64,000 nucleotides of DNA from Gemmatimonadota bacterium. GTDB taxonomy: Bacteria; Gemmatimonadota; Gemmatimonadetes; Gemmatimonadales; Gemmatimonadaceae. The position numbers and the translations under genes were made by a program. This document shows, in pieces, positions 13,564 through 59,575 of the stretch. Each line of letters starts with the position of its first letter. Positions within the stretch are counted from its first letter, which is position 1. The notes under the pieces are model-generated. The model was not told the origin of the DNA, did no database searches, and was given only the letters and a program-made list of their open reading frames with translations. The stretch is from the NCBI GenBank assembly GCA_031372565.1, contig JANMLN010000057.1:15025-79024 (forward strand). The letters are read 5' to 3'.

Positions 13564-14388
13564 ATGGCAATGCTGAGTTTCGAGAAGAAGTACCGCGTCA
13601 AGGGTGGGACCCTCATCGGAGGGGATCTGTTTGATTTTTGGGTCGGGCCGTTTTACGTCGGCTTCTTCGGCGTGACGGCGGCCTTCTGCGCCATCATGGG
13701 CACGTTGCTCATCGTGTACGGCGCCGCCGTCGGACCGACCTCGAACATCTGGCAGATCAACATCGCGCCGCCCGACCTCAAGTACGGACTCGGCCTCGCG
13801 CCGATGAACGAGGGCGGGCTGTGGCAGTTCATCACGATCTTCGCGATCGGCGCCTTCGTGAGTTGGATTCTTCGTCAGGCGGAGATCAGCCGCAAGCTCG
13901 GCATGGGGATGCACATCCCGTGGGCGTACAGCGTGTGCGTCTTTGCCTACGTGACGCTCGTGGTGATCCGTCCCGTGCTGCTCGGCGCGTGGGGACACGC
14001 GTTCCCGTACGGGATCTTCAGTCATCTCGACTGGGTGTCGAACGTCGGCTATCAGTACCTGCACTTCCACTACAATCCGGCGCACATGGTCGCGGTGACG
14101 TTCTTCTTCACCACGGTGCTCGCGCTGGCGATGCATGGCTCGCTGATTCTCTCGGTGACGAACCCGGGCAAGGGAAAGATTGTCAAGACGAGCGAGCACG
14201 AGAACGTGTTCTTCCGCGATTTCCTGGGCTACTCCATCGGCGCAATCGGTATTCACCGCCTCGGCCTCTTCCTGGCGCTGTCGGCGGGGATATGGAGCGC
14301 GATCTGTATCGTGCTGGCAGGTCCCTTCTGGACGAAGGGCTGGCCGGAATGGTGGGGCTGGTGGCTCAACATGCCCATCTGGCGATAG
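13564..14388 (+). CDS. pufL: Photosynthetic reaction center L subunit
   Basis: [55 protein letters not shown]. Confidence 0.99.
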
Positions 14389-14400: not shown

Positions 14401-15498
14401 ATGCTCGAATACCAGAACCTGTTCACCCGCGTGCAGGTGCGGCATGCCCCGGACCCTGGGCTCCCGCTGCCCGCCGGGTCGGACAAGCGCATCGGCACCG
14501 GATTCTTCAACTACTGGATCGGCAAGTTCGGCGACGCCCAGATCGGGCCGTTCTACCTCGGGACTTACGGGTTGCTCTCCCTCCTCTTTGGCAGCATTGC
14601 CATCGAGATCATGGGACTCAACATGTGGGCGTCCGTGGGGTGGGACCCGGTCGAGTTCGTCCGACGCCTGCCCTGGTTGTCACTGGAGCCGCCCTCGCCG
14701 GAGTACGGCCTCCGCATGCCGCCCCTCGCGAAGGGAGGCTGGTACCTGCTGGCCGGCTTCTTCCTCTCGCTGTCGATCGGGCTGTGGTGGCTGCGCACCT
14801 ACAAGCGTGCGAAGGTGCTCGGGATGGGGACCCATCTCGCGTGGGCATTCGGCTCGGCCATCTTCCTCTACAGCACCTTCTTCTTCCAGCCGTTGCTGGT
14901 CGGTAGCTGGAGCGAAATGGTCCCGTTCGGCCTCTTCCCGCACCTCGACTGGACTGCTGCGTTCAGCATCCGGTACGGGAACCTGTACTACAACCCGTTC
15001 CACGCCCTCTCGATCGTCTTCCTGTATGGATCGACGCTGTTGTTCGCCATGCATGCGGCCACGATTCTCGCGACCAGCCGACTGGGCGGCGAGCGTGAGA
15101 TCGAGCAGATCACCGACCGCGGGACGGCCGCCGAGCGCTCGCAGCTGTTCTGGCGCTGGGTCATGGGCTTCAACGCCACGATGGAGTCGATCCATCGCTG
15201 GGCCTGGTGGTTCGCGGTGCTGACCACTTTCACCGGCGGCATCGGCATCCTGCTCACCGGCACGGTTGTCGACAACTGGTATCTCTGGGCGGTCAAGCAC
15301 CATGTGGCGCCGCAGTACCCGGCGGCCAACAAGACGCTGACGCCGGCCCTGCTCGATTCCCTCCGCGGCCAGTATGCGGGGCCGATGAACAAGGGATTCC
15401 CGGTCTACGCCGTTCCCGCGGCGCCGATCGCACCTGCCGTCACCGACACGGCCGCGATGGCCGCGCCGGCCGCGCCCGACACCGGGAGGAAGCCATGA
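14401..15498 (+). CDS. pufM: Photosynthetic reaction center M subunit with a C-terminal extension of about 60 aa
   Basis: [52 protein letters not shown]. Confidence 0.99.
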
Positions 15499-16583
15499 GT
15501 GCCGTGATGGTTCGTCGTCTCTCCACGAGGGCGCTCGCCGCGAGCGCCCTCCTCCTCACCGCCTGCGATCCGATCACGCCGACCAACAATCGGAATCGGG
15601 ACTTCGTGCAGACCGGTGAGCGCGGCACTTCGATGGCGCAGATCTACAACCGCGACGCCAACGCCGCGAAGTTCAAGGCGGTCAGCATTCCGACCACGCT
15701 CCCCCCGGCGGGCTTGAGCCCGCCGGGGCCGCTGCCGTGGAAGAACGTGCAGGTGCTCAACGACATCAGCGTGGCCGAGTTCAACCGGACGATGATCGCC
15801 TTCAGCACGTGGGTCGCGGGCACCGGCAACTGTGCCTACTGCCACAACGTGGCGAACTTCGCCTCCGACACGCTCAACAACGGCAAGCCGATCTACACCA
15901 AGCTCACGGCGCGCCGCATGATCCAGATGACCCGCCACATCAACGGCAACTATGCCAGCCATGTGGCCAACACCGGGGTCACCTGCTACACCTGTCACCT
16001 GGGCAAGCCGCAGCCGAACGGCCTCTGGTTCTACAGCAACGAGAGCCAGTACCTGCGGAACTACCTCGACTACACGGGTGCGCGCGTGGTCTCGCACACG
16101 GTCGCGCCATCGCCGGCCAACCGCTCGTCGGTCAAGCAGACCGAGAACACCTACGCCCAGATGATCTCGATGTCGACGGCGCTGGGCGTCAATTGCACCT
16201 ACTGCCACAACTCGCGGCAGTTCGCGAGTTGGGAGCAGTCGCCGCCGGCGCGCGTCAAGGCGTACCGCGGCATCCAGATGATCCGCGACGTGAACTCCAA
16301 CTACGTCGCGCCGCTGGCGAGCATTCTGCCGGCCATCCGCCTGGGTCCCATGGGTGATGGCCCCAAAGCCCAGTGCAGCACGTGCCATAACGGGGTCTAC
16401 AAGCCGCTCTACGGCGCACAGATGGCCAAGGATTATCCGGCTGTCTGGGGTCGTACCGAGTGGAATGGCATCGCGTTCCCCGGGTTGCATCCGGGCACGG
16501 ACACCACGAAGGCCAAGGTGGCATCGGCGGCTGCCCCTGCCACACCGATCGCGGCCGCTGGCGCGGGATCGACGGGGCACTAG
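15495..16583 (+). CDS. pufC: Reaction center tetraheme cytochrome c subunit (lipoprotein)
   Basis: Four CxxCH motifs (CAYCH, CYTCH, CTYCH, CSTCH), lipobox LLLTAC, QTG.RGT.M; ATGA overlap with pufM. Confidence 0.97.
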
Positions 16584-16614
16584 GCACCGGTTGGTTCTCC
16601 GCCGCCGTACCGGT

Positions 16615-16652
16615 CAGGCCCCGCGCACCACGCGCGGGGCCTGCTCGTTTTC
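16615..16652 (+). terminator. Rho-independent terminator of the puf operon
   Basis: 12-bp perfect stem CAGGCCCCGCGC/GCGCGGGGCCTG, 5-nt loop, followed by CTCGTTTTC. Confidence 0.75.
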
Positions 16653-16746
16653 GGGCACTTCGCATTCGTCTCGGGTGTTGGACTCCGGCTAGATTGTTCC
16701 GCCCAAGCCATCCTGCTCCCGCGCCCGACCGTCCGAGGATCTCTTC

Positions 16747-17391
16747 GTGAGCACCCGCCGACTTCCCGTCTACATTCTGGCCGACGTTTCCGGCTCCATG
16801 CAGGGCACTCCCATCGAGTCCGTCAAGGCCGGCATCCGCCAGCTGCATCGCGACCTGATGAGCGACCCGCAGGCGATCGAGAGTGCCTATCTCTCCATCA
16901 TCACCTTCGCCGACAGCGCGCAGCAGATCGTGCCGCTCACCGAGGTCGCCCAGTTCCAGCCGCCCGAGGCGATGTCCGCGTCGGGCTCCACGAACTTTGG
17001 CGACGGACTGCGGCTCCTCCTCGAGTGCTTCGACGCCGAACTCGTGCGCACCACGGCCGAACAGAAGGGCGACTGGAAGCCGCTCGTGTTCATCCTGTCC
17101 GATGGCGCTCCCACCGACAGCGCCTGGAGCGAGTACGCGAGCGCCCTCACCGCCAAGCGCCCCGCCAACATCATCGCGCTCGCCTGCGGCGATCAGGCCG
17201 ACACGAGTGTGCTCAAGCGCGTGACCGAGACGGTCATCGAGATGCGCGACATGACCCCCGACGCCTTCAAGTCGTTCTTCAAGTTCGTGTCGGCCAGCGT
17301 CAGGCAGACCAGCGCCAAGGTGGGCGCACCCGGAGCCGGGGGCGCGATCACGCTGCCACCGCCGCCGCCGGGCATCACGATCGTCCCGTAG
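16747..17391 (+). CDS. terY: TerY-family VWA domain protein
   Basis: RRLPVYIL.D.SGSM.G.PIESVK.G, DPQAIE.AYLSIITF, KGDWKPLVFILSDG.PTD, FFKFVSASV, C-terminal LPPPPP. Confidence 0.9.
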   Translation: MSTRRLPVYILADVSGSMQGTPIESVKAGIRQLHRDLMSDPQAIESAYLSIITFADSAQQIVPLTEVAQFQPPEAMSASGSTNFGDGLRLLLECFDAELVRTTAEQKGDWKPLVFILSDGAPTDSAWSEYASALTAKRPANIIALACGDQADTSVLKRVTETVIEMRDMTPDAFKSFFKFVSASVRQTSAKVGAPGAGGAITLPPPPPGITIVP

Positions 17392-17397
17392 TCGGCG

Positions 17398-18405
17398 GTG
17401 GCCGAGACCGAGACGCGCGTGATCATTCCGACGGCCGCGGCGCCCGCAGCGGAGCCGCCGGTCGTCGCCGCCACCTGGCAGGAGCGCGAGCCACCGGACC
17501 CATGGTGCCCCGCGGAACTCACCGCGCACCTCCCGTGGGCGGATGAGGTCGTGCGCGCGCACGCGCACACCTGGTCCGCGCGCGGCCGCGCTGGGTGGAC
17601 GCTCGTCGCCGGCACCCGTCGCGGCCGCTCGCACGCGCATCAGGCGCAGTGGCGGGAAGACGCGGCTGGCTTCGCGTCCCTTCCCGCCGCTGACGGGAGC
17701 GCCCTGCACCTGCTCGTGGCCGCCGATGGCGCCGGATCGGCCCGCTGGAGCCGGATCGGCTCGGAGGCGGCGTGCCGGGCCGTCGTGGACTTCGCGGCCC
17801 TCCACGGGCCCAATGCGGCCGATGGCGGGGCCCTCGTCACGGGCGCTGCCGCCTTCGCCGTCGACGAACTCCGCCGCCTCGCCGCCGTCGGCGGCGCGCT
17901 CCCACGCGACCTCCGCACAACCCTCCTCGTCGCCGCCCTCTGGGGGCACCCGGGACACGAGCAGCTGGCCTGCACGCAGGTCGGCGATGGCGCCATTCTC
18001 GTGCGCACGAGCGATGGCAACGTCACGCAGCTCGGTGTCGGCGACAGCGGCGAGTTCTCGGGAGAGGTCACCTGCTTCGTGCCCGATCCGGAGGCCACCG
18101 CCCGCGCCGCGAGTGCACTGGTGCGGCGCGACGCGCGCGAGGTGACGCACTGCCTGCTGCTCACCGACGGCATCGAGGATCCGTTCTACCCGCTGGCACG
18201 CCGCGGTGCCGGGCTGCTGGCCCAACTCATGGACGGCGTGCGCGAGCCCGCTGAGCACTTTCAGCGGCAAGCGGTCCACGGCCCCGTCTTGGGCGACCCG
18301 GCGATGCATGAGCGACTGGCCGAGTGGCTCACCTTCGAGCGGCGTGGCGAGAACGACGATCGCACACTCGTGGCCGCCGTGCGGGCGGCAGCGGTGGAGC
18401 GCTGA
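17398..18405 (+). CDS. PP2C-family Ser/Thr phosphatase (TerY-P triad type)
   Basis: RRGRSHAH...REDA, VAADGAGSA..S..GS, QVGDG, LLTDG, NDDRT metal-binding motifs. Confidence 0.88.
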   Translation: MAETETRVIIPTAAAPAAEPPVVAATWQEREPPDPWCPAELTAHLPWADEVVRAHAHTWSARGRAGWTLVAGTRRGRSHAHQAQWREDAAGFASLPAADGSALHLLVAADGAGSARWSRIGSEAACRAVVDFAALHGPNAADGGALVTGAAAFAVDELRRLAAVGGALPRDLRTTLLVAALWGHPGHEQLACTQVGDGAILVRTSDGNVTQLGVGDSGEFSGEVTCFVPDPEATARAASALVRRDAREVTHCLLLTDGIEDPFYPLARRGAGLLAQLMDGVREPAEHFQRQAVHGPVLGDPAMHERLAEWLTFERRGENDDRTLVAAVRAAAVER

Positions 18406-18406
18406 C

Positions 18407-19843
18407 GTGAGCTTCCTCTCGGCACGCCTCACGGACGGTCGCACGATCGAGTTCGAGGATCGGGCCCTCAACTCGGGCGGCGAGAAAGTCGTGTTCCGCA
18501 CACGCGACCGGCAGCACGTGGTCGGGTTCTTCCATGGCCGCCTGAGCGACCGCCGTGAACGCGCCGACCGGTTGCAGCGCATCATCACGCGCTACAATCC
18601 GACCACAGGCAAGCACGGTGCCTTCTGGCATCCGTACTTCTGCTGGCCTACCGGCGTTGTCGATGGCGACGGGGGGATTCCGCCGCGCTTCGCCCAGCAG
18701 AACGGACTCGTCCTTCCCGCATTGGGCGTGGTCGCGCCGATCTACCGCAAGGAGTTCTTCTTCCGCGACCGGTTCGGCACGCTGCAGGAGAAGGAGGTGA
18801 AGTGGTTCACCGGGCGCAAGGCGGCGACGTTCGTCCCGGAGCACGAGTTCGGATCGTTTCTCACGCGCCTGCAGGTGTGCACGCGCCTCACGCGCGCCGT
18901 GCGCCGCATGCACTTCGCCGGACTCGCGCATTCCGACCTGTCGAACAAGAACGTGCTCATCGATCCCAAGGGAGGCGATGCGTGCGTGATCGACATCGAC
19001 TCGCTCGTGGTGCCGGGCATCGCGCCGCCGTCGGTGCTGGGCACGCCGGGATACATCGCCCCGGAAGTGATGGCCGGTCGGGCCCGGCCGAGCATCGACA
19101 CCGACAAGCACGCGCTCGCGGTGCTGCTCTACCAGATCCTGCTCAACCGGCATCCGCTGCAGGGTCGCAAGGTCCACAGCCGCCGCTCCGCGGAGGAGGA
19201 CGAGACGTTGTCGATGGGCGACAAGGCGCTCTTTGTCGAGCATCCACTGGATCACAGCAACCCGCCCGTGCACCCGATCCGCGTGCCGATGGGACGGCTC
19301 GGACCCTATCTCGCGCCGCTGTTCGAGCAGACGTTCGTGCGCGGGCTGCACCATCCGGCGCGTCGCGCGGACGCCGCCGAGTGGGAAGTGGCGCTGTATC
19401 GCACGCTCAACCTCGTCCACCCGACGCCGAGCGGGCGCGAGTGGTTGGTCGTCGCACCGGGACTGCCGATGCAGTGCCCCTTCACGGGCGAGCGGCTGAA
19501 GCATCCGGTGCCGATCGCGCACTTCCTGCGCGACGCGCATGGCGCCGTCGCGGACGAACACCAGGCGTTGGTGCTCTTCCACCACCTGCGCCTGCAGGCG
19601 TGGCACCTGCGGCCCAACGTGCTGCCGGATGAGTCCGCCGACCGTACCGCGCTGGGCTACGTGTCGCATCATGACGGGGCGTGGTGGATGGTCAACCTCG
19701 GCGACGACGTCTGGCGGCCGTCACGGGGCGTGGCGGTCCATCGCAATGAAGCGCTGGAACTAACCCCGGGCCTCGACGTGCGCGTGGGTGAGGGCGATCC
19801 GGCGCGCATCTTCCGCATCGAGTTCCGCAGTCCCACGGCCTGA
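18407..19843 (+). CDS. TerY-associated Ser/Thr kinase with a C-terminal FHA-like domain
   Basis: SGGEKVVF, FCWPT, GLAHSDLSNKNVLID, IDID, GTPGYIAPEV, TDKHALAVL; GTG start 1 bp after the PP2C stop. Confidence 0.88.
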   Translation: MSFLSARLTDGRTIEFEDRALNSGGEKVVFRTRDRQHVVGFFHGRLSDRRERADRLQRIITRYNPTTGKHGAFWHPYFCWPTGVVDGDGGIPPRFAQQNGLVLPALGVVAPIYRKEFFFRDRFGTLQEKEVKWFTGRKAATFVPEHEFGSFLTRLQVCTRLTRAVRRMHFAGLAHSDLSNKNVLIDPKGGDACVIDIDSLVVPGIAPPSVLGTPGYIAPEVMAGRARPSIDTDKHALAVLLYQILLNRHPLQGRKVHSRRSAEEDETLSMGDKALFVEHPLDHSNPPVHPIRVPMGRLGPYLAPLFEQTFVRGLHHPARRADAAEWEVALYRTLNLVHPTPSGREWLVVAPGLPMQCPFTGERLKHPVPIAHFLRDAHGAVADEHQALVLFHHLRLQAWHLRPNVLPDESADRTALGYVSHHDGAWWMVNLGDDVWRPSRGVAVHRNEALELTPGLDVRVGEGDPARIFRIEFRSPTA

Positions 19844-19846
19844 GCG

Positions 19847-21310
19847 ATGGACGTTCGCGCGCTGGTGCGGCAGGCGCTCGTTGCCCGTGTGGCCGACACG
19901 ACGTGGTGGCCACCCGCGGATGCCACGCGGTTCCACAACCGGTTGCTGGATGATTGCGGTGACGTGGCGCGCCCCGACGTCGCGCTGCTCATGCAACTGC
20001 ACGCACGCGACGTGGGCGGACGGCTGCCGCAAGCGGTGCTGTCGCACGCGGCGTGGCACCGCGAGCGCGCGATGCTCACGATGGTGTTCGCGCATGAACT
20101 CTCGGCCGAGGGCGGCGTGCACGAGCACGATCTGCTCTGGGCCGTGGAGAGCTGGGCACTCGCGCTGTCGGTGATCGACGCTGCCCTGCTCATCCCGCCA
20201 CCACCGGTGCGCGCACCCAGGCGGACGGCGACATCGGGACCGCAGGCATCGGCCGGCCGCACCTCGCGTGCGGGAACGGGCCCGAGCGGGACCGGCGCCT
20301 CCCCCTCGGTGCCCACCTCCTCCCCCTCGGTGCCCACCTCGACGAAGCGCGGTCGAGGGTGGCCGCACGGCCCCATCGCGCGTGCTGCCCCCACCCCGAA
20401 TCACTGGACGTACCGGTGGCCGCTCGACGCCATCACGTTCGGCATGATGGCCTTTCTGGGCGTCGGCGTCGCGGTGGCCGAATGGGCGATGGCGCGTGAT
20501 GCCCGGCTCGCGCGCGAGCGGACGCAGCGGGCCGCGGTCACGGCGGCCTCGTCCGACGTTCGCAGCGCGAACCAGGCCACCACGCTCGTCGCATCGGCAG
20601 CAGGCAGCGTGATGGCGACGGCGACGCCCGAGCCGGAGGACGCCGTGCGCGCCCCGCAACTGCGCGTGCTGCCGAACACCGGGCCTGTCGTGGCTGTGGC
20701 GGGGGATCGCGCGCCAAGCGCCGTGGACACCGTGCAGCTGCGCGACGGGCGTCTCCTTGTGGGCACGATCGGCGTGATCACCGAATCGCACCTGTACCTG
20801 ACCGACGCCGCGACCGGACTCCCCTTCGAGTTGCGCGTGGGCGCCGTGACGCGCGTGCGCACACACGCCGGTCGGCAGCTGCGCTTCGACGCCGCGGGTG
20901 ACGACAGCGCACGGAGCCCCTCGCTGATCGTGCGCGGCGTGGGGGGACGCTATGTCGTGCGCCGACGCGTCCTCGCGGCCAGCGGCGACGCGAGTTGCGA
21001 GGGTACGGGGCGCGCCATCGATCCGGTCGAGCAGACCGACGAGGAGATCACGCATGCGCCCGGGAGCGCCACCTTCACGATGCCATCGCGGCCCGGCGTG
21101 CACGGCACCATCGCACCCGACGGACGGTTCGAGACGGTTCTCCTGAGCGGCATCCGTGCCATGGGCGACTACAGCTGGCGCATGGTCGGCCACTTCACGC
21201 CGACCGGCTTCATCGCCGAGGCCGACGCCAGCACCGTCGTGGTCACACGCTGGCGCGACAGCCAGCGCTGCCGCTTCCTGACCGAGCTCACCGGAGTCCG
21301 CCGACCATGA
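19847..21310 (+). CDS. Hypothetical single-pass membrane protein (paralog A)
   Basis: N-terminal helical domain ending WAVESWALAL.VID, S/T/P-rich linker, one TM (ITFGMMAFLGVGVAVA), beta-rich C-terminal domain with two Cys. Confidence 0.75.
   Translation: MDVRALVRQALVARVADTTWWPPADATRFHNRLLDDCGDVARPDVALLMQLHARDVGGRLPQAVLSHAAWHRERAMLTMVFAHELSAEGGVHEHDLLWAVESWALALSVIDAALLIPPPPVRAPRRTATSGPQASAGRTSRAGTGPSGTGASPSVPTSSPSVPTSTKRGRGWPHGPIARAAPTPNHWTYRWPLDAITFGMMAFLGVGVAVAEWAMARDARLARERTQRAAVTAASSDVRSANQATTLVASAAGSVMATATPEPEDAVRAPQLRVLPNTGPVVAVAGDRAPSAVDTVQLRDGRLLVGTIGVITESHLYLTDAATGLPFELRVGAVTRVRTHAGRQLRFDAAGDDSARSPSLIVRGVGGRYVVRRRVLAASGDASCEGTGRAIDPVEQTDEEITHAPGSATFTMPSRPGVHGTIAPDGRFETVLLSGIRAMGDYSWRMVGHFTPTGFIAEADASTVVVTRWRDSQRCRFLTELTGVRRP
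20298..20339 (+). repeat. Perfect 21-bp tandem duplication (CCTCCCCCTCGGTGCCCACCT x2) encoding SPSVPTS twice
   Basis: Read directly; in frame within the linker of paralog A. Confidence 0.9.
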
Positions 21311-22938
21311 CGGACGAACGTCGCGTCGTGCAGGGCGGGCTGCGCCGCCTGATCAACCGGGAACCACGCTGGGCCGAATGGTCGGTCGATACGCTGCGCG
21401 GCCGCTTCCTCGACGAGGTGGGCAGCGACTACAAGCCGCTCGTGCTGCTGTTGCTGCGCGTCCACGACATGGGCATTCCGCAGCGGTTGCCGCCCGCGAT
21501 CATCGACGCGGCGCACTGGGATCGCACGCGTGGAACGCTCGGCCAGCGGCTCGCCGCGGAGCTGTTCCTGCAGCCCCAGATGGCGGAGTGGGCGGTCGAA
21601 TCGTGGGCCTGGGCGCTGCACGTGATCGACGAGGAGTTTCTGCTCGATCCGCCGCAGGCACGGCCCGCGGCGGCCGTCGCGGCTGGACGCCCGGTCGCCG
21701 GCCGGTCGCCCAGCAGTGCGCCCCGTTCGACCAGCGCTGGTCGCTCGAGCTCCGCCGCGGGCCGCGCCCAAGCCCGCGCACCGATGCGCACCACGGCGTC
21801 GGTGCCAGCGACCTCGGCCGGCGGGGTGATGCGCTCGAGCAGTGCCGGCGGATCCGGTATCCCCGAGTGGGCGATCAAGGCGGCCTACATCTTCATCCCG
21901 GCGGTGTACGGCGGCTTCCTGCTCTTCATGGGCATCCAGATGGCGCGCAGGAAATCGTTCGATGCGACGCCTGCGAGATCGGCCGCGTTGGTCAGCGCGA
22001 CCGCAGAGACGACGCCGAGCGGGGCTCCGCCCGTATCGAGCGCCGACCTCTCACCCCTGCGCGCCGCGACCGCGAGCCCCGTTGCGGACCCCTCTCGTCC
22101 GGCGCTCGACCCGGTCGTGCAGCCGTACGCCAACACCACCCCCACCGGCGCACCGACCTCCACCAATCAGGCGCTCGCTGCCGACCCGTTGCCCGGCGTC
22201 ACGCGCAGTGCCCTGCCGATGACTGCGAACGACTCTGCCAAGGCCATGGCAGCCACGCCACCACGACGCGCGAGCTTTGCCACCGAGCAGGCGCCCCGCA
22301 ATCCGACGTCGGCGGCCGGTGGACTCGACCAGGTGATCACGACCGATGGGCGGACCATGACCGGACGGGTGGAAGTGATTCGTGCGGGCTCGATCGTGTT
22401 CAAGGACCAGAGCAGCGGACTGCGCTACGAGTTGCCCAAGACATCCGTGGTGCAGGTGCTGACCGAGTTCGGCACGGTCGTGAAATTCGACGGCGGCGAG
22501 CGCGTTGCCGTGAGCCCGGTCGTGAAGCGGGGGGTGGCCGGCCGCTACCGGGTGCACTACGTGATCAACGAAGTCACGGGTACCCCCGAGTGCGCGTCGC
22601 TGTGGAAGAATGCCGCGCCGCCTGATGCCGACACGGAGGTGCGACACCTTCCCGGCGCCGACACGCTCCAATTGGCATTCGTGCGCGGCGGCACGTTCAA
22701 CGCCGTGATGGATCGGGAGGCGCGCTTCACGTCGACGTTCGTCATCGTGCCGGATCAGGCGCTCACGGCCTCGGCGGTGACGTCGCGCATTCGCGGCACG
22801 TTCACCGCGACGGGGTTCTCGGGGCAGGTCACGCTCATCGGTTTTCGCCGCGCGCGGCCGGGGTCGGGACTGACCGACACGGCGTGCCAAAGCGTGCTGG
22901 ACGTGACGGGCACCCGCCTGCCGCCAGCGCCGCGATAG
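21307..22938 (+). CDS. Hypothetical single-pass membrane protein (paralog B)
   Basis: ATGA overlap; same architecture as paralog A: WAVESWAWAL.VID, TM (AYIFIPAVYGGFLLFMGI), D.V...DGR...G, GV.GRY.V, two Cys. Confidence 0.75.
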   Translation: MTDERRVVQGGLRRLINREPRWAEWSVDTLRGRFLDEVGSDYKPLVLLLLRVHDMGIPQRLPPAIIDAAHWDRTRGTLGQRLAAELFLQPQMAEWAVESWAWALHVIDEEFLLDPPQARPAAAVAAGRPVAGRSPSSAPRSTSAGRSSSAAGRAQARAPMRTTASVPATSAGGVMRSSSAGGSGIPEWAIKAAYIFIPAVYGGFLLFMGIQMARRKSFDATPARSAALVSATAETTPSGAPPVSSADLSPLRAATASPVADPSRPALDPVVQPYANTTPTGAPTSTNQALAADPLPGVTRSALPMTANDSAKAMAATPPRRASFATEQAPRNPTSAAGGLDQVITTDGRTMTGRVEVIRAGSIVFKDQSSGLRYELPKTSVVQVLTEFGTVVKFDGGERVAVSPVVKRGVAGRYRVHYVINEVTGTPECASLWKNAAPPDADTEVRHLPGADTLQLAFVRGGTFNAVMDREARFTSTFVIVPDQALTASAVTSRIRGTFTATGFSGQVTLIGFRRARPGSGLTDTACQSVLDVTGTRLPPAPR

Positions 22939-23003
22939 GGGCGGCTGGTGACCCCCGCCTGGTGCGGGGATGTGGGCGCCGCACGGAAGCGGTAACTTCC
23001 GCC

Positions 23004-25091
23004 ATGATCCAGTCTGCTGAGCACTCCTGCGCGCCCGCACGCCGTGCCGCGCGCCGTCTGGCTGCCGTGACCGTCCCGGCGGCCGTCCTCGCGCTGCTCA
23101 CGTTCGGCGCGGAGGTGCACGCCCAGCGCGTCGAGCGCGTGGCGTCCCCCGACGGACGCACGCAGGTATCGGTCGAGATACGCGATGGGCGGCTCACCTA
23201 TGCCGTCCTGCGCAACGGGGCCAAGCTGGTCCTTCCGAGCGCGCTCGGCTTCGCGTTCAAGGGCGCGCCGCCCCTCCGGGACAGCGTGCAGATCGTCGAC
23301 GTCGCACGCCAGTCGCACGATGCGACGTGGACGCAGCCGTGGGGCGAAGTCCGCCGCGTGCGCGATCACCACAACGAGCTGCGCGTCACGGTGCAGGAAA
23401 CCGCGCTGCGCGCGCGCCGATTCACGGTCGTCTTTCGCGCCTTCAACGACGGGCTGGGGTTCCGCTACGAACTGCCGGCGCAGCCCAACCTGACGGAGTT
23501 CGCGATCACCGAGGAGCTCACCGAGTTCGCGTTCGCCACCGATGGCCGGGCGTGGTGGATTCCGTCGTTCCAGCAGAACCGGTACGAGTACCTGTACCGC
23601 GCGTCGCCGATGAGCACGCTCGACACGGTGCACACGCCGCTGACGATCGAGTTTCCCTCGGGCACGCACGTGGTCGTGCACGAGGCCGACCTCGAGGATT
23701 ACGCGGCGCTCAACCTTCGCGGCGGCAAGGAGCAGAACCGCACGCTCCGGCCCGTGCTGGCCCTCATGCACGATGGCGTGGCCGCGTACGGCCGCACACC
23801 GTTCGCGACACCGTGGCGCACGCTGCAGATCGCGGACCGCGCGGCGGACCTGCTACCCTCCGTGCTCGGGCTCAACCTGAATCCGCCGAGCCGGATCGCC
23901 GATACGACGTTCGTGACGCCGATGAAGTACAACGGCATCTGGTGGGGGATGCACATCAACACGATGACGTGGGAGTCGGGCCCCATCCATGGCGCCACGA
24001 CCGCCAATGCCAAGCGCTACATCGATTTCGCCGCCGCCAACAACCTCGGTGGCATGCTGGTGGAGGGGTGGAACGTCGGATGGGACGGTGGCTGGGTCGA
24101 CAACGGCGACAAGTTCTCCTTCACCAAGGCCTACCCCGACTACGATCTCGTCTCCGTCGCCGCGTACGCCAAGCTCAAGGGGGTCCAGCTCATCGGCCAC
24201 AACGAGACGGCGATGGGGATCGACAACTACGAGCGCCAGCTCGACAGCGCCTTCTCCCTGTACAGGAAGCTGGGCATCACGTCGGTCAAGACGGGCTATG
24301 TCGGCGACAAGATGCGCAACGGCGACTATCACCATTCGCAGACGATGGTGCGGCACTATCGCAAGGTGATCGAGACCGCGGCCCGGTACGGCATCAGCAT
24401 CGACGCGCATGAGCCGATTCACGACACGGGCGAACGGCGCACCTGGCCCAACATGATCACGCGCGAAGGCGCGCGCGGGCAGGAGTACAACGCCTGGGGC
24501 GGCGACGGTGGCAACCCGCCCGAACACGAAACGATCCTGTTCTTCACGCGCATGATTGCCGGGCCCTTCGACTTCACCCCCGGCATCTTCGACCTGACCA
24601 TCACGCGACCCACGGGTACGCCGCGCCCCATCGAGGCCTCGCGCCCGCGCACCACGCTCGCCAAGCAGCTGGCGCTGTACGTGGTCCTGTACTCGCCCAT
24701 CCAGATGGCGGCGGATCTGCCCGAGAACTACGAAGGCCAGCCCGCCTTCCAGTTCATCCGCGACGTCGCGGTCGACTGGGACACGACGCGCGTGATCGAC
24801 GGCAAGATCGGTGACTTCGTGCTCGTCGCCCGCAAGGCACGCGGCAAGGACGAATGGTTCGTCGGCGCCATCACCGACGAAGCGTCGCGCTCGATGGAGA
24901 TCAAGCTCGACTTCCTCAGCGCCGGCAAGCGATACGTCGCCGAGATCTATGCCGATGGACCGAAGGCGCACTTCCTCGACAACCCGACCGCTGTGGCCAT
25001 CTCGTCGCAGCCGGTGACCGCCGCCACGCGGCTCACCCTGCGACTCGCAGCGGGCGGGGGACAGGCGATCCGCATTCGCCCCGCCAAGTGA
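23004..25091 (+). CDS. GH97 alpha-glucosidase/glucoamylase (SusB-like), secreted
   Basis: Signal peptide; SPDG, FRAFNDG.GFRY, KY.GIWWGMH, LVEGWN.GW, VKTGYV, REGARGQEYNAW, DFTPG. Confidence 0.93.
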   Translation: MIQSAEHSCAPARRAARRLAAVTVPAAVLALLTFGAEVHAQRVERVASPDGRTQVSVEIRDGRLTYAVLRNGAKLVLPSALGFAFKGAPPLRDSVQIVDVARQSHDATWTQPWGEVRRVRDHHNELRVTVQETALRARRFTVVFRAFNDGLGFRYELPAQPNLTEFAITEELTEFAFATDGRAWWIPSFQQNRYEYLYRASPMSTLDTVHTPLTIEFPSGTHVVVHEADLEDYAALNLRGGKEQNRTLRPVLALMHDGVAAYGRTPFATPWRTLQIADRAADLLPSVLGLNLNPPSRIADTTFVTPMKYNGIWWGMHINTMTWESGPIHGATTANAKRYIDFAAANNLGGMLVEGWNVGWDGGWVDNGDKFSFTKAYPDYDLVSVAAYAKLKGVQLIGHNETAMGIDNYERQLDSAFSLYRKLGITSVKTGYVGDKMRNGDYHHSQTMVRHYRKVIETAARYGISIDAHEPIHDTGERRTWPNMITREGARGQEYNAWGGDGGNPPEHETILFFTRMIAGPFDFTPGIFDLTITRPTGTPRPIEASRPRTTLAKQLALYVVLYSPIQMAADLPENYEGQPAFQFIRDVAVDWDTTRVIDGKIGDFVLVARKARGKDEWFVGAITDEASRSMEIKLDFLSAGKRYVAEIYADGPKAHFLDNPTAVAISSQPVTAATRLTLRLAAGGGQAIRIRPAK

Positions 25092-25099
25092 CCGCCCCC

Positions 25100-26524
25100 A
25101 TGCACACGCGCCTCCGCTCCGGCACGCAACGCGCCGCGCGCATCGCCGTCGTCCTCCTCTCGCTCGGGGCCTGCTCCAAGCCGGCGCCGGCGACGAACGC
25201 CGCGGTGCCACCGTCCGCCGCTGCCCTCGACGCCGCCACCACCCACCCCGCCTGGTCGGCGCAGGCGACCATCTACGAGGTGAACATCCGGCAGTACACC
25301 CCCGAGGGCACGCTCGCCGCCTTCACGCGGGAGATCCCGCGCCTCAAGCGGCTCGGCGTGGATATCCTCTGGATCATGCCGGTGCAGCCCATTGGCCGGA
25401 AGAATCGCAAGGGCTCGCTCGGCAGCTACTACTCCATTGCCGACTATCGGGCGATCAATCCCGAGTTCGGCACGATGGCCGACTTCCGTGACCTCGTGAC
25501 CTCCGCGCACAAACAGGGGCTCAAGGTCATTCTCGACTGGGTGCCCAATCACACGGCCTTCGATCATCCGTGGACCACGGCGCACCCGGATTTCTACACG
25601 CACAACGCCGATGGGTCGATCTCGGTGGCCCGCAACAACGACGGGACGCTCACCGACTGGACCGACGTTGCCGATCTCGACTACGAGAACCCGGCCATGC
25701 GGCAGGCGATGATCGGCGAGCTGCGCTGGTGGGTCGACTCGACCGGCATTGACGGCTTCCGGCAGGACGTGGCGTGGGGCGTCCCGCACAGCTTCTGGAA
25801 GGAAGTGCACGACACCTTCCGCCCGTCGCATCCCGACCTGTTCTTTCTTGCCGAAGCCGAGGACGCGGCACTGCACGAGTCGTTCGATGCCACGTACACC
25901 TGGGAGATGCACCACCTGCTCAACGCCATCGCGCAGGGCAAGAAGGGCTTCGGCGAGCTGACGGCGTACTTCGAGCGGCAGGTGAAAACGTACAATCCCG
26001 GCGCCTTCCGGATGTCGTTCACGAGCAACCACGACGAGAACAGCTGGCAGGGTACCGAGTTCGAGCGGATGGGCAGCAACCACCAGGCCGCGTTCATTCT
26101 TGCCGCGACGCTCCAGGGCTCCTTCCCGTTGCTCTACACGGGGCAGGAGGTGAGCCTGAACAAGCGGCTCCGCTTCTTCGACAAGGACACCGTCCCCATG
26201 ACGGGCGCGTCGCTGGCCGACTTCTACGCGTCGGTGTTTGCGCTGAAGCACGCCCAGCCGGCCTTGGCCAACGGCGGGTGGGGCGCGCCGCAGGTGGCGC
26301 TCCGCCACACCGCCGGGGAGCGGGTCTTCGCCTTCACGCGCACCAAGGGCGCCAACACGGTGCTGGTGGCGGTGAACTTCGGCGATGCGCCCACGGCCGT
26401 GGCGTACGCCGGCCTCGCCGAGGCCGGCACGTACACCGACTGGTTCTCGAAGGCCGGCGTGACACTCGGTGCCACCGGTACCATCGACGTGCCCGCGCAC
26501 GGCTGGCGCGTGCTCACGCGCTGA
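25100..26524 (+). CDS. GH13 alpha-amylase-family lipoprotein (alternative GTG start at 25088)
   Basis: LLSLGAC lipobox; IYEVNIRQYT, DWVPNH, DGFRQDVA, LAEAE, NHDEN catalytic regions. Confidence 0.92.
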   Translation: MHTRLRSGTQRAARIAVVLLSLGACSKPAPATNAAVPPSAAALDAATTHPAWSAQATIYEVNIRQYTPEGTLAAFTREIPRLKRLGVDILWIMPVQPIGRKNRKGSLGSYYSIADYRAINPEFGTMADFRDLVTSAHKQGLKVILDWVPNHTAFDHPWTTAHPDFYTHNADGSISVARNNDGTLTDWTDVADLDYENPAMRQAMIGELRWWVDSTGIDGFRQDVAWGVPHSFWKEVHDTFRPSHPDLFFLAEAEDAALHESFDATYTWEMHHLLNAIAQGKKGFGELTAYFERQVKTYNPGAFRMSFTSNHDENSWQGTEFERMGSNHQAAFILAATLQGSFPLLYTGQEVSLNKRLRFFDKDTVPMTGASLADFYASVFALKHAQPALANGGWGAPQVALRHTAGERVFAFTRTKGANTVLVAVNFGDAPTAVAYAGLAEAGTYTDWFSKAGVTLGATGTIDVPAHGWRVLTR

Positions 26525-26567
26525 GCGTGTAGTCGTCCTCGACCCTGCCCTTCGCACTCCTCCCGTG

Positions 26568-27539
26568 ATGACCGCCATGCGCATGCACGCACTGTTGGCC
26601 CTGGGCCTCGCCGTCGCCGCCCCGTCCGCCACGCTCCACGCCAGCCCGGTGGTGTCCACCCGTGCGGCGGCCGCGCCGAACGACATTCTTGGGCGCTGGG
26701 ACCTCACGGTGCAGGGCGCCAACGGGCCGCATCCTTCGTGGCTCGAAGTCGCGCTCTCGGGCAGGGCCACGCTGGTCGGCCGCTTCGTGTCGCAGTTTGG
26801 CAGCGCACGGCCCGTGGCCAAGGTGGCCTATGCGGCCGAGGGCACCTACCGCTTCGAGATTCCGCCGCAATGGGAAGCCGGGGCCGGCGACCTGCTCTTC
26901 GAGGGGCGCCTCGACGGCGACAAGCTCTCCGGCTTCATCACCGAACCGAATGGCACGCGTGCCCCCTTCACCGGTGTACGCGCGCCCGACCTGCGCCACC
27001 CCGAGCCCGCGTGGGGAGAGCCGGCCGCGATCTTCAATGGCAAGGACCTCGCTGGCTGGGAGGCGATGGGACCCGGGAGCCAGTGGACCGTCGTGAACGG
27101 CATCCTCACCAACACCAAGAGCGGTGCGAACCTGCGCACGACCGCGACGTATGGCGATTTCAAGCTGCACGTCGAGTTCCGCGTGCCACCGCAGGGCAAC
27201 AGTGGGCTCTACCTGCGCGGGCGACACGAGGTGCAGGTGGAGGATAGCAAGGGCCTCGGCAAGAACAGCCACCACGAAGGGGGCGTCTATGGCTTCCTGG
27301 TGCCCAACGAGAACGCGGCCGGTGCGCCCCTCGAGTGGCAGACGTACGACATCACGCTCGTCGGGCGGCTCGTCACCGTGACGCTCAACGGCCGGACGGT
27401 CATCCGCGACCAGGAAATCCCGGGGCCAACGGGCGGTGCCATGGACAGCAACGAGGGCGAACCGGGCCCGTTGTACCTGCAGGGCGACCACACGTCCATC
27501 GAGTATCGCAAGATCGTGATGACGACGCCGCGACGATGA
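26568..27539 (+). CDS. DUF1080 (3-keto-disaccharide hydrolase/hydratase) protein, secreted
   Basis: IFNGKDLAGW, YGDFKLHVEFR, GNSGLYLRGR.EVQV.D, WQTYDITL, LQGDH..IEYR. Confidence 0.88.
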   Translation: MTAMRMHALLALGLAVAAPSATLHASPVVSTRAAAAPNDILGRWDLTVQGANGPHPSWLEVALSGRATLVGRFVSQFGSARPVAKVAYAAEGTYRFEIPPQWEAGAGDLLFEGRLDGDKLSGFITEPNGTRAPFTGVRAPDLRHPEPAWGEPAAIFNGKDLAGWEAMGPGSQWTVVNGILTNTKSGANLRTTATYGDFKLHVEFRVPPQGNSGLYLRGRHEVQVEDSKGLGKNSHHEGGVYGFLVPNENAAGAPLEWQTYDITLVGRLVTVTLNGRTVIRDQEIPGPTGGAMDSNEGEPGPLYLQGDHTSIEYRKIVMTTPRR

Positions 27540-27668
27540 CGCGGCGCTGCTGATCTTTCCTTCGGCGCTCCCCGATGCCAGAATGTCATCGCTGACGTCG
27601 GGTTTCGGCCTTACCTTCCGTGCGACCCCCGTGGTGGTGTCGTGCGCCCCAGCTTCGAGGAACACGTT

Positions 27669-29348
27669 GTGCAGACAACAGAGTTCGACGCAATCGTGGT
27701 AGGCTCCGGCATCTCCGGGGGCTGGGCGGCCAAGGAGCTCACCGAAAAGGGGCTCAAGGTCCTGCTGCTCGAGCGCGGTCGGGATGTCAAGCACGTCGTG
27801 GACTACAAGAACGCGACCAAGGCCCCGTGGGACTACGCCCATCGTGGCGGGCGCACCACGGAGATGGAGCGGCAGTATCCCGTGCTCAAGCGCGACTATC
27901 CGCTCAACGAGAAGAACCTCGACTTCTGGGTGAAGGACGAAGAGTCCCCCTACACCGAGGTCAAGCGCTTCGATTGGTACCGCGGGTACCAGGTCGGCGG
28001 ACGCTCGCTGATGTGGGGGCGCCAGAGCTATCGACTGAGCGACCTCGACTTCGAGGCCAACGCCAAGGAGGGGATCGCTGTCGATTGGCCGATCCGTTAC
28101 GCGGAGATCGCGCCGTGGTACGACAAGGTCGAGCGTTTTGCCGGCATCTCCGGATCGCTCGAGGGCTTGCCGCACCTCCCCGATGGCCAGTTCCAGCCGG
28201 CGATGCCGCTCAACTGCGGCGAGGAACTCGTCTCGAAGCGGCTCAAGACGAAGTTCGGCGGTACGCGCCGACTGATCCCGGGACGCACGGCCAACCTGAC
28301 CAAGGCGCTGCAGGGTCGCGCGCCGTGCCAGTCGCGCAACGCCTGCTGGCTGGGCTGTCCCTATGGCGCCTACTTCAGCACGCAGTCGTCCACGCTGCCC
28401 GCAGCCGTCGCCACCAAGCGCCTCACGCTCAAGCCCTTCTCGATCGCCAGCGAAGTGCTGTACGACAAGGACAAGAAGCGGGCGACCGGCGTGCGCGTGA
28501 TCGACGCCAACACCAACGCGGTCACCGACTACAAGGCGAAGGTCATCTTCCTCTGCGCATCGACGCTCAACTCGACGTGGCTCCTGATGCGCTCGGCGAC
28601 CGACCTGTGGCCGCAGGGGCTCGGCTCGAGCTCGGGTGAGCTTGGCCACAACCTGATGGACCATCACTTCCGCCTCGGCGCCTCGGGCAAGATCGAGGGG
28701 CTCGAGGACAAGTATGTCTTTGGAAGCCGCCCGACCGGCTACTACATCCCGCGCTTCCGCAACATCGGGAGCGACAAGCGCGAATACCTGCGTGGCTTCG
28801 GCTACCAGGGTGGTGCGTCGCGCGAAGGATGGGGCCGCGCGGTCGCGGAACTCGGTGTGGGCGGCGGCTTCAAGGACGCGATGGCGATGCCCGGCGGCTG
28901 GACGATCGGCGGCACGGCCTTCGGCGAGATGCTGCCGAACCATGACAACAAGGTCTCGCTCGACGAGGCCAAGAAGGACAAGTGGGGCATGCCGGTGCTC
29001 AAGATCGACTGCGCGATCGGCGAGAACGAACAGAAGATGCGCAAGGACATGACGGCCGACATGGCGGAGATGCTCACCGAGTCCGGCGTGAAGGATGTCC
29101 GGACGTTCGACGCCGGCTACTTCCCGGGGCAAGGCATCCACGAAATGGGTACCGCGCGCATGGGCAGGGACCCCAAGACGTCGGTGCTGAACAAGCACAA
29201 CCAGGTCTGGGACGCGCCGAACGTCTTTGTCACCGATGGCTCGGGGATGACCTCGGCCTCCTGCGTCAATCCGTCGCTGACCTACATGGCCCTCACCGCC
29301 CGGGCTGCCGATTTCGCGGTGCGGGAACTCAAGAAGCGCACCCTCTAG
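27669..29348 (+). CDS. GMC oxidoreductase, glucoside 3-dehydrogenase catalytic subunit (LacA-like)
   Basis: DAIVVGSGISGGWAAKELTEKG, VGGRSLMWGRQ, Cys cluster C..RNAC..GCP, IHEMGTARMG, NPSLTYMALTARA. Confidence 0.92.
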   Translation: MQTTEFDAIVVGSGISGGWAAKELTEKGLKVLLLERGRDVKHVVDYKNATKAPWDYAHRGGRTTEMERQYPVLKRDYPLNEKNLDFWVKDEESPYTEVKRFDWYRGYQVGGRSLMWGRQSYRLSDLDFEANAKEGIAVDWPIRYAEIAPWYDKVERFAGISGSLEGLPHLPDGQFQPAMPLNCGEELVSKRLKTKFGGTRRLIPGRTANLTKALQGRAPCQSRNACWLGCPYGAYFSTQSSTLPAAVATKRLTLKPFSIASEVLYDKDKKRATGVRVIDANTNAVTDYKAKVIFLCASTLNSTWLLMRSATDLWPQGLGSSSGELGHNLMDHHFRLGASGKIEGLEDKYVFGSRPTGYYIPRFRNIGSDKREYLRGFGYQGGASREGWGRAVAELGVGGGFKDAMAMPGGWTIGGTAFGEMLPNHDNKVSLDEAKKDKWGMPVLKIDCAIGENEQKMRKDMTADMAEMLTESGVKDVRTFDAGYFPGQGIHEMGTARMGRDPKTSVLNKHNQVWDAPNVFVTDGSGMTSASCVNPSLTYMALTARAADFAVRELKKRTL

Positions 29349-29356
29349 GCGAGGTC

Positions 29357-29968
29357 ATGCACATGTCGAACGAAACCCACGACTCGACCGGGATCGACCG
29401 CCGCGAAGCGGTGCGGCGCGTCTCGATGATGCTCGGCGGTGTCGCGCTGATCGGGAGCAACGGGCTCCTCACCGGCTTCCGACGCGCGTTGTCGCCGGAG
29501 GAACTCGCCGACGGCCTCTTCACCGCCGCCGACATCGCCTGGCTGGATGAGGTGGCCGACACGATCCTGCCGACGACGAGCACCCCGGGCGCGAAGGCGG
29601 CGCAGGTCGGCGCCTTCATCGCGGTGATGGTCACCGACACCTACGAGAAGGCGAAGCAGCAGACCTTCCTCGAGGGGATGAAGACGCTCGAGACCGAAAG
29701 CGTCAACGCGCACGCTGTCGGCTTCCTCGCGGCGACATCCGCACAGCGCCTGTCGCTGCTTGAGCGGATCGACCGTGAGGCGCATGCCGCCATGAAGAAG
29801 CCCGGTGCCACGCATTACTTCCGGATGATCAAGGAACTCACCCTGCTCGGGTACTTCACCTCGAAGATCGGCTGCACGCAGGCGCAGCGATATGTCGAGT
29901 CGCCAGGGCGGTTCGATCCCTGCGTGCCGTACACGAAGGGCGAGAAGAGCTGGGCCGGGCACGCCTGA
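29357..29968 (+). CDS. Gluconate 2-dehydrogenase subunit 3 family (LacC-like Tat escort subunit)
   Basis: Tat-like IDRREAVRR, LDEVADTILP.T.TPGAKAA, YFRMIKELTLLGYFTS.IG. Confidence 0.88.
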   Translation: MHMSNETHDSTGIDRREAVRRVSMMLGGVALIGSNGLLTGFRRALSPEELADGLFTAADIAWLDEVADTILPTTSTPGAKAAQVGAFIAVMVTDTYEKAKQQTFLEGMKTLETESVNAHAVGFLAATSAQRLSLLERIDREAHAAMKKPGATHYFRMIKELTLLGYFTSKIGCTQAQRYVESPGRFDPCVPYTKGEKSWAGHA

Positions 29969-29974
29969 GTCCTG

Positions 29975-59572: not shown

Positions 59573-59575
59573 TGT

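Follow-up and report, generated by a model that had tools for sequence, protein, structure and literature searches.

A five-gene VWA–PP2C–kinase cassette beside the photosynthesis genes of Gemmatimonadota: a putative membrane-tethered phospho-switch with exchangeable partners

The stretch of DNA considered here (the window, 64,000 nucleotides in all) comes from a Gemmatimonadota bacterium of the family Gemmatimonadaceae (assembly GCA_031372565.1, contig JANMLN010000057.1, positions 15,025 to 79,024), and the subject of this report is a cassette of five genes, g1 to g5, that follows the photosynthesis gene pufC within it. The first three genes encode a stand-alone VWA protein, a PP2C-type phosphatase and a Ser/Thr kinase, and the last two encode single-pass membrane proteins that share an N-terminal domain, here called the N-domain. 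On balance it is probable that the five products form one membrane-tethered phospho-switch with plug-in partners, tied as an accessory to an acquired photosystem. The parts of the cassette, by position in the window, are as follows.

16747–17391, plus strand: g1, stand-alone VWA protein of 214 aa (Pfam VWA, 1.1e-9)
17398–18405, plus strand: g2, PP2C-type phosphatase of 335 aa (Pfam PP2C_2, 2.3e-31, residues 75–311)
18407–19843, plus strand: g3, Ser/Thr kinase of 478 residues (Pfam Pkinase, 7.3e-12, residues 156–266 only)
18407–19411, plus strand: g3 residues 1–335, Hanks-type Ser/Thr kinase domain (Pfam, AlphaFold2 model, VIA-align)
19412–19843, plus strand: g3 residues 336–478, predicted degenerate Zn-ribbon and beta-strand-rich C-terminal domain (alignment, AlphaFold2 model)
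19847–21310, plus strand: g4, predicted single-pass membrane protein of 487 aa (N-domain profile, 7.3e-26)
19847–20200, plus strand: g4 N-domain, about residues 1–115 (N-domain profile)
20423–20479, plus strand: g4 predicted transmembrane helix, residues 193–211 (strongly hydrophobic segment)
21307–22938, plus strand: g5, predicted single-pass membrane protein of 543 aa (N-domain profile, 1.3e-31)
21307–21621, plus strand: g5 N-domain, residues 1–105 (AlphaFold2 model and N-domain profile)
21865–21954, plus strand: g5 predicted transmembrane helix, residues 187–216 (AlphaFold2 model; hydrophobic segment at residues 192–210)

There is good support for counting the two extra genes, g4 and g5, with the triad. 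Of 64 loci found by scanning species-representative genomes, 36 are in Gemmatimonadota and 28 in other groups, with full-length relatives of g4 and g5 confined to the 36. An earlier note on this DNA had hung its proposal on whether such homologues would stand apart from VWA–PP2C–kinase triads in other genomes, and they are clearly linked to them: the kinase gene lies directly upstream of the first g4/g5-like gene in 28 of 29 informative Gemmatimonadota loci, with the PP2C and VWA genes before the kinase (seven further loci of the phylum are cut by contig ends and fall outside the 29). Most Gemmatimonadota loci carry two membrane-protein genes, one of a short and one of a long type; there is one such gene in four loci and there are three in one. 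No gene of the source genome other than g4 and g5 encodes an N-domain, and across 41 genomes of the order the profiles of the N-domain and of the kinase C-terminal domain match the identical five genomes, with one kinase each.

Beyond the phylum, the 28 loci come from Acidobacteriota, Chloroflexota, Cyanobacteria, Gammaproteobacteria, Planctomycetota and others, and they match only about residues 10–145 of g5. A strong match to the same kinase family, C-terminal domain included, is present in 16 of the 28, and one more is cut by a contig end. Pfam annotation outside the phylum covered 109 hand-picked open reading frames (ORFs) from 17 of these loci, in most of which VWA, PP2C_2 and kinase genes stand in the same string as the N-domain gene. 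The N-domain is fused there to right-handed beta-helix/pectinesterase-like, SH3_3, phosphonate-type solute-binding, FGE-sulfatase, MCP signalling and TPR modules, or forms part of short tail-anchored proteins that lack any further domain. In five genomes the N-domain genes number 5, 2, 1, 1 and 1, and the four genomes then searched have one kinase of the family each; three genomes with an unlinked N-domain gene have exactly one family kinase, located elsewhere. On this profile evidence, the N-domain is the widely conserved, triad-linked part of g4 and g5. The earlier note was thus right to count both proteins with the triad, and it overlooked that this domain is the sole part of them to be widely conserved and linked to it.

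Two of the loci outside the phylum have an unusual layout. Around one kinase gene in a Competibacteraceae locus (L071, 1933–11313) there are four N-domain genes, one of unknown type, two with FGE-sulfatase and one with ankyrin repeats; a PIN-domain gene stands directly before the VWA–PP2C pair, and the fifth N-domain gene of this genome, a beta-helix fusion, lies on another contig (L067). A cyanobacterial contig of 7.4 kb (L082, 340–6848) carries six tandem N-domain matches, which may represent an array of partner genes, together with a weak kinase-like match.

The N-domain is helical, is about 105 residues long and has an invariant pattern at its N-terminus (L..D...L...W....W..AL; alignment A3). 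The A3 profile, which recognizes g5 at 1.3e-31 and g4 at 7.3e-26, returned 4,794 cluster representatives (clustered at 50% identity) at E ≤ 1e-3, and 2,860 at E ≤ 1e-10, from 1.84 billion proteins. The domain is almost always N-terminal, and 23 of the top 150 representatives contain two copies of it. It has no Pfam match at E ≤ 10 besides noise and no relative among PDB sequences (best E 0.12), and an Atlas search gave unnamed neighbours only. No description of it was found in Pfam, NCBIfam, PADLOC, the PDB or a literature search, where supplements and the original 2012 TerY-P paper may hold more. As far as profiles can tell, the N-domain defines a large family that is without a name in the libraries searched.

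The modules attached to this family are diverse. A Pfam scan of 132 of the top 150 representatives (the 18 omitted are all of 198 aa or fewer) found more than 20 different families fused to the N-domain, including Lcl_C, LRR, WD40, Ank, Sel1, NHL, GUN4 with DnaJ_C, ARC6-like IMS and RDD, and further GerE, GrpE, RuvB_N, HRDC, SWIB, SBP_bac_3 and PP2C_2, while about 60% of the scanned proteins had no Pfam domain. A transmembrane-like segment follows the N-domain in 83 of 140 representatives. The set of fused modules is much like that covalently fused to bacterial Ser/Thr kinases, and it is because of this resemblance that the system is read here as a split receptor kinase.

The two membrane proteins themselves bear out the first description of them as single-pass paralogues, as g4 and g5 can be aligned from end to end (BLASTP 3e-27, 25% identity) and each has one strongly hydrophobic segment (residues 193–211 in g4 and 192–210 in g5). 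Neither has a family match in Pfam, PADLOC or NCBIfam. The linker before the transmembrane helix is rich in Ser and Thr (20 of 74 residues in g4 and 18 of 71 in g5, or 25–27%) and contains ten (g4) or nine (g5) Arg/Lys residues and zero Asp/Glu. Because this linker is positive and acid-free, and because no signal peptide is present in either protein, the N-terminus is predicted to lie inside. In g4 the N-domain is followed by a Ser/Thr/Arg/Pro-rich linker, the transmembrane helix, an extracytoplasmic linker and a beta-rich C-terminal domain. The AlphaFold2 model of g5, made from a 31-sequence alignment, places a seven-helix N-domain (predicted local distance difference test score, pLDDT, about 96) before a disordered Ser/Thr/Arg linker, the transmembrane helix, a disordered periplasmic linker with the conserved motif PGVPS..ADS..RR, a small beta-barrel (341–393) and a larger barrel; the C-terminal domain has a pLDDT of about 90. 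The predicted topology of both proteins is therefore a cytoplasmic N-domain, a Ser/Thr/Arg linker, one transmembrane helix and an extracytoplasmic beta-rich domain. This agrees with the earlier proposal of extracytoplasmic Cys domains and cytoplasmic Ser/Thr-rich linkers, and the Cys pair of the C-terminal domains (C384/C475 in g4, C429/C527 in g5) corresponds to two Cys that are invariant in all 31 sequences.

The larger barrel of g5 is predicted to be eight-stranded and of the up-and-down type (about residues 400–540). When the whole g5 model was used with VIA-align, the matches listed were taken up by this C-terminal barrel, and they include Cap15 (Z 10.1), the sensor domain of M. tuberculosis PknI (Z 9.5, root-mean-square deviation 3.9 over 120 residues) and avidins; as the background is stated as 7–8, a Z of 9–10 for an eight-stranded barrel is only modestly above it. 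Foldseek with the whole model gave nothing at E ≤ 1e-3. Among 5.8 billion proteins g5 returned 35 relatives, none of which has a Pfam domain, and those that carry a source name are called “hypothetical protein”.

In the mechanism proposed, the N-domain of g4 and g5 would serve as a cytoplasmic docking domain that holds the soluble kinase at the membrane via the Zn-ribbon/beta-rich C-terminus of the latter, and/or docks the VWA protein via its metal-ion-dependent adhesion site (MIDAS) and an invariant Asp of the N-domain. Outside, the periplasmic barrels would recognise a ligand or some component of the envelope; inside, the Ser/Thr/Arg-rich juxtamembrane linkers would be phosphorylated by the kinase and reset by the PP2C phosphatase. 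In other phyla this docking domain would plug beta-helix, FGE-sulfatase, SH3, solute-binding, WD40/TPR/LRR, MCP or LuxR-type helix-turn-helix modules into the same core, so that the whole system would amount to a receptor kinase divided among parts that can be exchanged. Within Gemmatimonadaceae, the switch would be tied to the horizontally acquired photosystem as an accessory, not as a core component. Receptor kinases of the PknI/PknB type, with a sensor outside and a kinase inside, have an analogous predicted function; the difference is that sensor and kinase are separate polypeptides here, joined by an inferred docking domain.

Several observations count against this mechanism. In one Gemmatimonadota genome (L028) two g4/g5-like genes are found apart from the single family kinase, on another contig. 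Across the N-domain family the linker is mildly enriched in Ser/Thr (16.5%, vs 14% elsewhere in the protein), no Ser or Thr position of the N-domain is invariant, and no output of the switch is evident. Profile comparison gave a probability below 1% for an N-domain-like sequence in the kinase alignment or the PP2C protein. Some of the fused modules (LuxR helix-turn-helix, MCP signalling, GrpE and RuvB) resemble outputs or substrates more than sensors. Homotypic docking is ruled out, as neither the kinase nor the PP2C protein contains a copy of the N-domain.

The output-like modules raise the possibility, held here as a tentative one, that the kinase acts on N-domain proteins as its substrates or works through them as outputs. 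The N-domain would then serve for recruitment or as an acceptor, loosely in the manner of a receiver domain, and g4 and g5 would be the end-points under regulation, such as factors for periplasmic binding or assembly. Fusions to LuxR-type helix-turn-helix, MCP signalling, GrpE, RuvB_N, SWIB and PP2C modules are what such a role would lead one to expect, as is the presence of several N-domain genes per kinase (four in L071), and 27 of the 83 membrane-anchored members are tail-anchored without any outside domain. However, the fusions that can be identified mostly involve modules for binding ligands or proteins, of kinds common on bacterial Ser/Thr kinases, and the lack of an invariant Ser/Thr in the N-domain also counts against this role. 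The sensor and the substrate/output readings of N-domain proteins are not mutually exclusive.

The kinase that would be held at the membrane in the split-receptor mechanism is well modeled (pLDDT 88.7, predicted template modelling score 0.90), and no membrane helix is present in the g3 model. With VIA-align, residues 1–336 match BRAF at Z 20.4, WNK3 at 19.4 and M. tuberculosis PknB at 19.1, and the catalytic residues H175-S-D177, N182, D196 and D198 are invariant in the kinase alignment (which leaves out one locus, L046, with an internal stop). Model and alignment together give g3 a Hanks-type kinase fold with the HxD motif, the Asn and the DFG-equivalent Asp. The beta3 (VAIK) Lys is absent from g3, and a Gly occupies that position across the Gemmatimonadota clade: g3 reads VVGFF where kinases of other phyla have VALKW. 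The sole Lys within residues 1–60 (window 18407–18590) is K27 in the Gly-loop, which reads GGEK27VVF as against GGQGEVY. The best structural matches of g3 include WNK3 and WNK1, tied with many others, and the Lys position in the Gemmatimonadota kinases looks like the WNK type of lysine relocation, as we infer from the alignment.

Behind the kinase domain, the alignment points to a Zn-ribbon followed by a beta-strand-rich C-terminal domain as the hallmark of the g3 kinase family. The four Cys of the ribbon are kept in 13 kinases of other phyla and lost in g3 and 12 other Gemmatimonadota kinases, the degenerate ribbon of g3 retaining one Cys, and H400, W426, N430, G455 and R467 are conserved in the C-terminal region. 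The last 140 or so residues of g3 are beta-rich in the AlphaFold2 model, and the VIA-align matches listed for g3 were taken up by its kinase domain. This C-terminal domain has no Pfam match at E ≤ 10, its profile has none among PDB sequences (best E 0.2), and an Atlas search gave unnamed clusters only. An FHA-like fold is only weakly suggested, by an hhalign comparison with nine FHA domains (probability 21%, pairwise E 1e-3, 55 columns).

The other two core proteins are more conventional. In g1 the MIDAS is intact (D13, S15, S17, T82 and D119, invariant in 21 aligned sequences), and the protein ends in a conserved Pro-rich tail. Comparison of VWA C-termini (window 17340–17391; loci L055–L079) finds a short conserved tail behind a Pro-rich linker, which reads ...PPPPPGITIVP in Gemmatimonadota and ...DDVW in other phyla and looks like a docking peptide for another component. 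The g2 protein matches PP2C_2 with 109.4 bits (cut-off 24) over profile positions 1–208 of 209, and this full-length match above the gathering score assigns it to the PP2C phosphatase family. In a Caldilineaceae locus (L070, 4126–5601) VWA and PP2C lie within a single ORF, which may be an assembly frameshift, and in a Leptolyngbya locus (L069, 9483–11030) a second kinase is fused to a VWA domain and followed by PP2C. These fused forms are consistent with joint action of the three core proteins.

The same three protein types in one operon, with a MIDAS intact as in g1, are found in TerY-P, a triad that occurs in ter loci and CoCoNuT systems, where the kinase bears a Zn-ribbon at its C-terminus, and that is also described as an anti-phage system standing alone, with a kinase ending in an OB-fold (PMC11090510). 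The earlier note had assigned the cassette to antiphage TerY-P, and here a PADLOC run did not bear it out. With PADLOC-DB 2.0.0 at E ≤ 0.01 there was no match for g1 or g2; the TerY model (PDLC02224) made weak partial matches to distant VWA proteins (1.7e-4 and 1.1e-3) and none to g1; g3 hit generic kinase models only (e.g., PD-T4-6, mad6, MkoA and PglW); and no defence model matched g4, g5 or any N-domain protein. The four-Cys Zn-ribbon of TerY-P in ter/CoCoNuT loci is kept by g3 relatives in other phyla, whereas its ligands are lost in g3. Those loci are also defined by their ter association, whereas the source genome has no match to the TerD family (PF02342) in any part of its 4.44 Mb (95.85% complete), which extends to the whole genome the previous remark that terABCD and terZ are missing from the window. 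A further difference from TerY-P is that one to three extra N-domain genes are an obligatory part of the unit here.

A TerY-P-type role in anti-phage defence, with the membrane proteins as sensors or abortive-infection effectors, is accordingly judged quite improbable, even though parts of the evidence fit it. The VWA–PP2C–kinase architecture is that of TerY-P, for which stand-alone defence is reported (PMC11090510), and the distribution is patchy (five of 41 genomes of the order, with presence and absence differing within one genus). FGE-sulfatase, WD40, TPR, LRR and beta-helix partner modules occur in conflict systems as well (PMC7159879), and one N-domain locus has a PIN gene. Yet apart from the failure of the defence models with g1, g2, g4, g5 and the N-domain proteins, nothing resembling a toxin domain turned up among the modules fused in the 132 scanned representatives, and neither the window nor the nine flanks scanned have other defence or mobile genes adjoining the cassette. 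Its fixed position between puf and puh in many species, all of them phototrophs, is also unlike that of a fast-turnover defence island. The practical caution is that not every VWA–PP2C–kinase triad should be labelled anti-phage TerY-P.

Other precedents are closer in some respects. A kinase–PP2C–vWA theme has been described from actinobacterial GAP1-N2 GTPase neighbourhoods (Kaur et al. 2020, PMC7159879), and its kinase with a Zn-ribbon plus a domain rich in beta-strands fits the g3 family; the main-text passages on this theme make no mention of N-domain partners or of a photosynthesis context, and the supplements may differ. In E. coli, YegL (VWA), PphC/YegK (PP2C) and YegI (kinase) are the same gene triad as g1–g3 when compared by description only; YegI and PphC have been characterised biochemically (10.1101/819920, 10.1101/303594), and YegI is an integral membrane kinase with two transmembrane segments (10.1101/819920). 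In contrast to YegI, g3 has no membrane helix in its model, and anchorage would come from the separate g4 and g5 proteins.

The five genes are co-oriented, with gaps of 6 nt between g1 and g2 (17392–17397), 1 nt between g2 and g3 (18406) and 3 nt between g3 and g4 (19844–19846), and with an ATGA overlap of g4 and g5 at 21307–21310; the ORFs and coordinates first given for them were all confirmed. The g3 start is a GTG within a longer ORF (18206–19843). Judged from this spacing, g1–g5 constitute one compact operon, lying behind a terminator that follows pufC. A terminator scan of 8.5 kb gave four terminator-like sites where 2.0 ± 1.6 would be expected, which alone is weak, and the hairpin after pufC is the strongest of the four. 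The insulation from puf that had been proposed is supported by this hairpin and by published RNA-seq of a cultured relative, discussed below. The features on the upstream side are as follows.

13564–14388, plus strand: pufL (Pfam Photo_RC; pufL/pufM 4.2e-95, 1.1e-98)
14401–15498, plus strand: pufM (Pfam Photo_RC; pufL/pufM 4.2e-95, 1.1e-98)
ending at 16583, plus strand: pufC (Pfam CytoC_RC, 1.5e-96)
16615–16643, plus strand: terminator-like hairpin with a 12-bp stem, 11 GC pairs and a T-tract, between the pufC stop (16583) and the g1 start

Linkage to the photosynthesis gene cluster and to phototrophs is the strongest contextual signal, and it was missed when puf was treated as no more than an insulated neighbour. 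Of the 25 informative loci, 24 have pufC directly upstream of the VWA gene, and in 27 of 37 loci searched puhA-lhaA-acsF lie convergently downstream. The flanks of nine annotated Gemmatimonadota loci read pufL-pufM-pufC and then VWA, with convergent puh, lhaA/pucC and acsF after the last membrane gene. The window has the same attachment to pufC and a different downstream region. Two phototrophic genomes of one genus (g11; loci L016 and L101) have a cassette with a single membrane gene on a contig other than that of puf. Among 401 genomes sampled evenly from the phylum, the kinase C-terminal domain was found in 11 of 21 pufLM-positive genomes vs none of 380 pufLM-negative ones. All 11 cassette-bearing genomes belong to one family; the non-carriers are three phototrophs of that family and seven in two other families. 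In two genomes of 79% and 85% completeness (G001 and G004), which may or may not be phototrophic, no pufLM was found, and their CytoC_RC matches are weak, partial and multihaem.

The same survey gives weight to a different explanation, namely that the cassette entered an ancestral Gemmatimonadaceae cluster as a neutral passenger, at the junction where puf and puh converge, has since travelled with the cluster and carries out general envelope or stress signalling unrelated to phototrophy. Ten of the 21 pufLM-positive genomes lack the cassette, and the cassette is thus dispensable for phototrophy and an accessory of the cluster. In two phototrophic Gemmatimonadota without it (L097 and L098), puf and puh abut, with about 1.3 kb between the convergent pufC and puhA and no cassette trace, so the cassette is a clean presence/absence difference at the pufC/puh junction. 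Co-occurrence with phototrophy could be hitch-hiking of such a passenger, related genomes are not independent observations, and the only unlinked cases are the two genomes of one genus. Homologous systems of other phyla stand in unrelated contexts, the downstream neighbours in the window are sugar-utilisation genes in place of puh, and no co-regulation with puf appears in light-shift RNA-seq. It is the absence from half of the phototrophs, together with this lack of co-regulation, that keeps the passenger explanation serious, although we consider it doubtful on the whole. It does not readily account for the cassette occurring in 0 of the 380 non-phototrophic genomes of the sample, for its retention in both phototrophic genomes of genus g11 despite a contig separate from puf, or for its attachment to pufC in two cluster arrangements, that of the window and the Gemmatimonas type.

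The cassette is not new to the literature as a set of genes. Hypothetical ORFs are drawn between puf and puh in Gemmatimonas clusters (Zeng et al. 2021, PMC7844134), and Kopejtka et al. 2024 (PMC11406998) show the counterparts in grey, without a proposed function. These “hypothetical genes between puh and puf” have the same position and gene order as g1–g5, and in the parts of both papers that present the clusters they are left without a function or a system-level reading. The earlier view that the architecture was undescribed holds in the sense that the N-domain has no Pfam, NCBIfam, PADLOC or PDB match, and fails for the genes, which had already been drawn. In G. phototrophica, Table S3 of PMC11406998 gives the order after pufC as VWA, PP2C, Ser/Thr kinase and two hypothetical proteins (445 and 604 aa), and then convergent puh; these genes are equated with g1–g5 by annotation, order and length and by other Gemmatimonas loci, not by alignment.

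The same source provides expression values for these counterparts. Their log counts per million (logCPM) are 7.03 for VWA, 7.64 for PP2C, 7.76 for the kinase and 7.70 and 7.98 for the hypothetical proteins, and none of the five has a significant light response (log2 −0.22 to +0.87, false discovery rate, FDR, > 0.09; PMC11406998). For pufLMC the logCPM is 9.3–9.5, and the log2 change at 2 h of high light is −2.45 to −2.49 (FDR about 1e-6; PMC11406998). According to these tabulated values, the annotated counterparts are expressed at similar levels and regulated apart from puf, which fits a terminator after pufC. The authors describe minimal transcriptional control of the G. phototrophica cluster, with an unknown mechanism of transient repression, and regard the regulation of transferred photosynthesis genes in Gemmatimonadota as an open question (PMC11406998).

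Under the phospho-switch reading, conserved “hypothetical” genes in the photosynthesis cluster of phototrophic Gemmatimonadota acquire an identity and a mechanism that can be tested. The N-domain family likewise predicts partners of the widespread kinase–phosphatase–VWA core, which makes many orphan membrane and repeat proteins candidates for a part in Ser/Thr signalling. A bolder version is speculative and rather unlikely. In it, the N-domain would mark plug-in subunits that serve a soluble kinase–PP2C–VWA core throughout the bacteria, a so far unnamed receptor-kinase architecture of modular and non-covalent build, and in phototrophic Gemmatimonadaceae the switch would be the missing post-translational controller by which the acquired photosystem is integrated into its new host. 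If it were true, post-translational control by the switch would explain the minimal transcriptional control in G. phototrophica.

Some observations on the surroundings complete the description. At L020 (11209–11751) and its equivalents the reaction-centre H subunit is encoded by an ORF of about 180 aa that matches Pfam PRCH from profile position 82 on, and this partial match fits the split puhA1/puhA2 reported in Gemmatimonas (PMC8849296). A frame of 777 aa on the minus strand (16255–18588), antisense to pufC, g1 and g2, is an artefact of high G+C and was excluded by a third-position GC filter. Upstream of puf, the window contains a crtF-like O-methyltransferase gene, a bchC-like gene and an Oxidored_nitro gene, and pufL-pufM-pufC are the 3′ end of the crtF-bchC...-puf part of a photosynthesis gene cluster. 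Downstream of the cassette is a large carbohydrate-utilisation region (22884–36273 and 52116–63990), with genes for glycoside hydrolases (GH) of families GH97, GH32, GH1 and GH77, alpha-amylases, a 3-keto-disaccharide hydrolase, a GMC oxidoreductase, a sugar transporter and a SusC/SusD-like pair, so that in the source genome the photosynthesis cluster stops, on its puf side, at the cassette.

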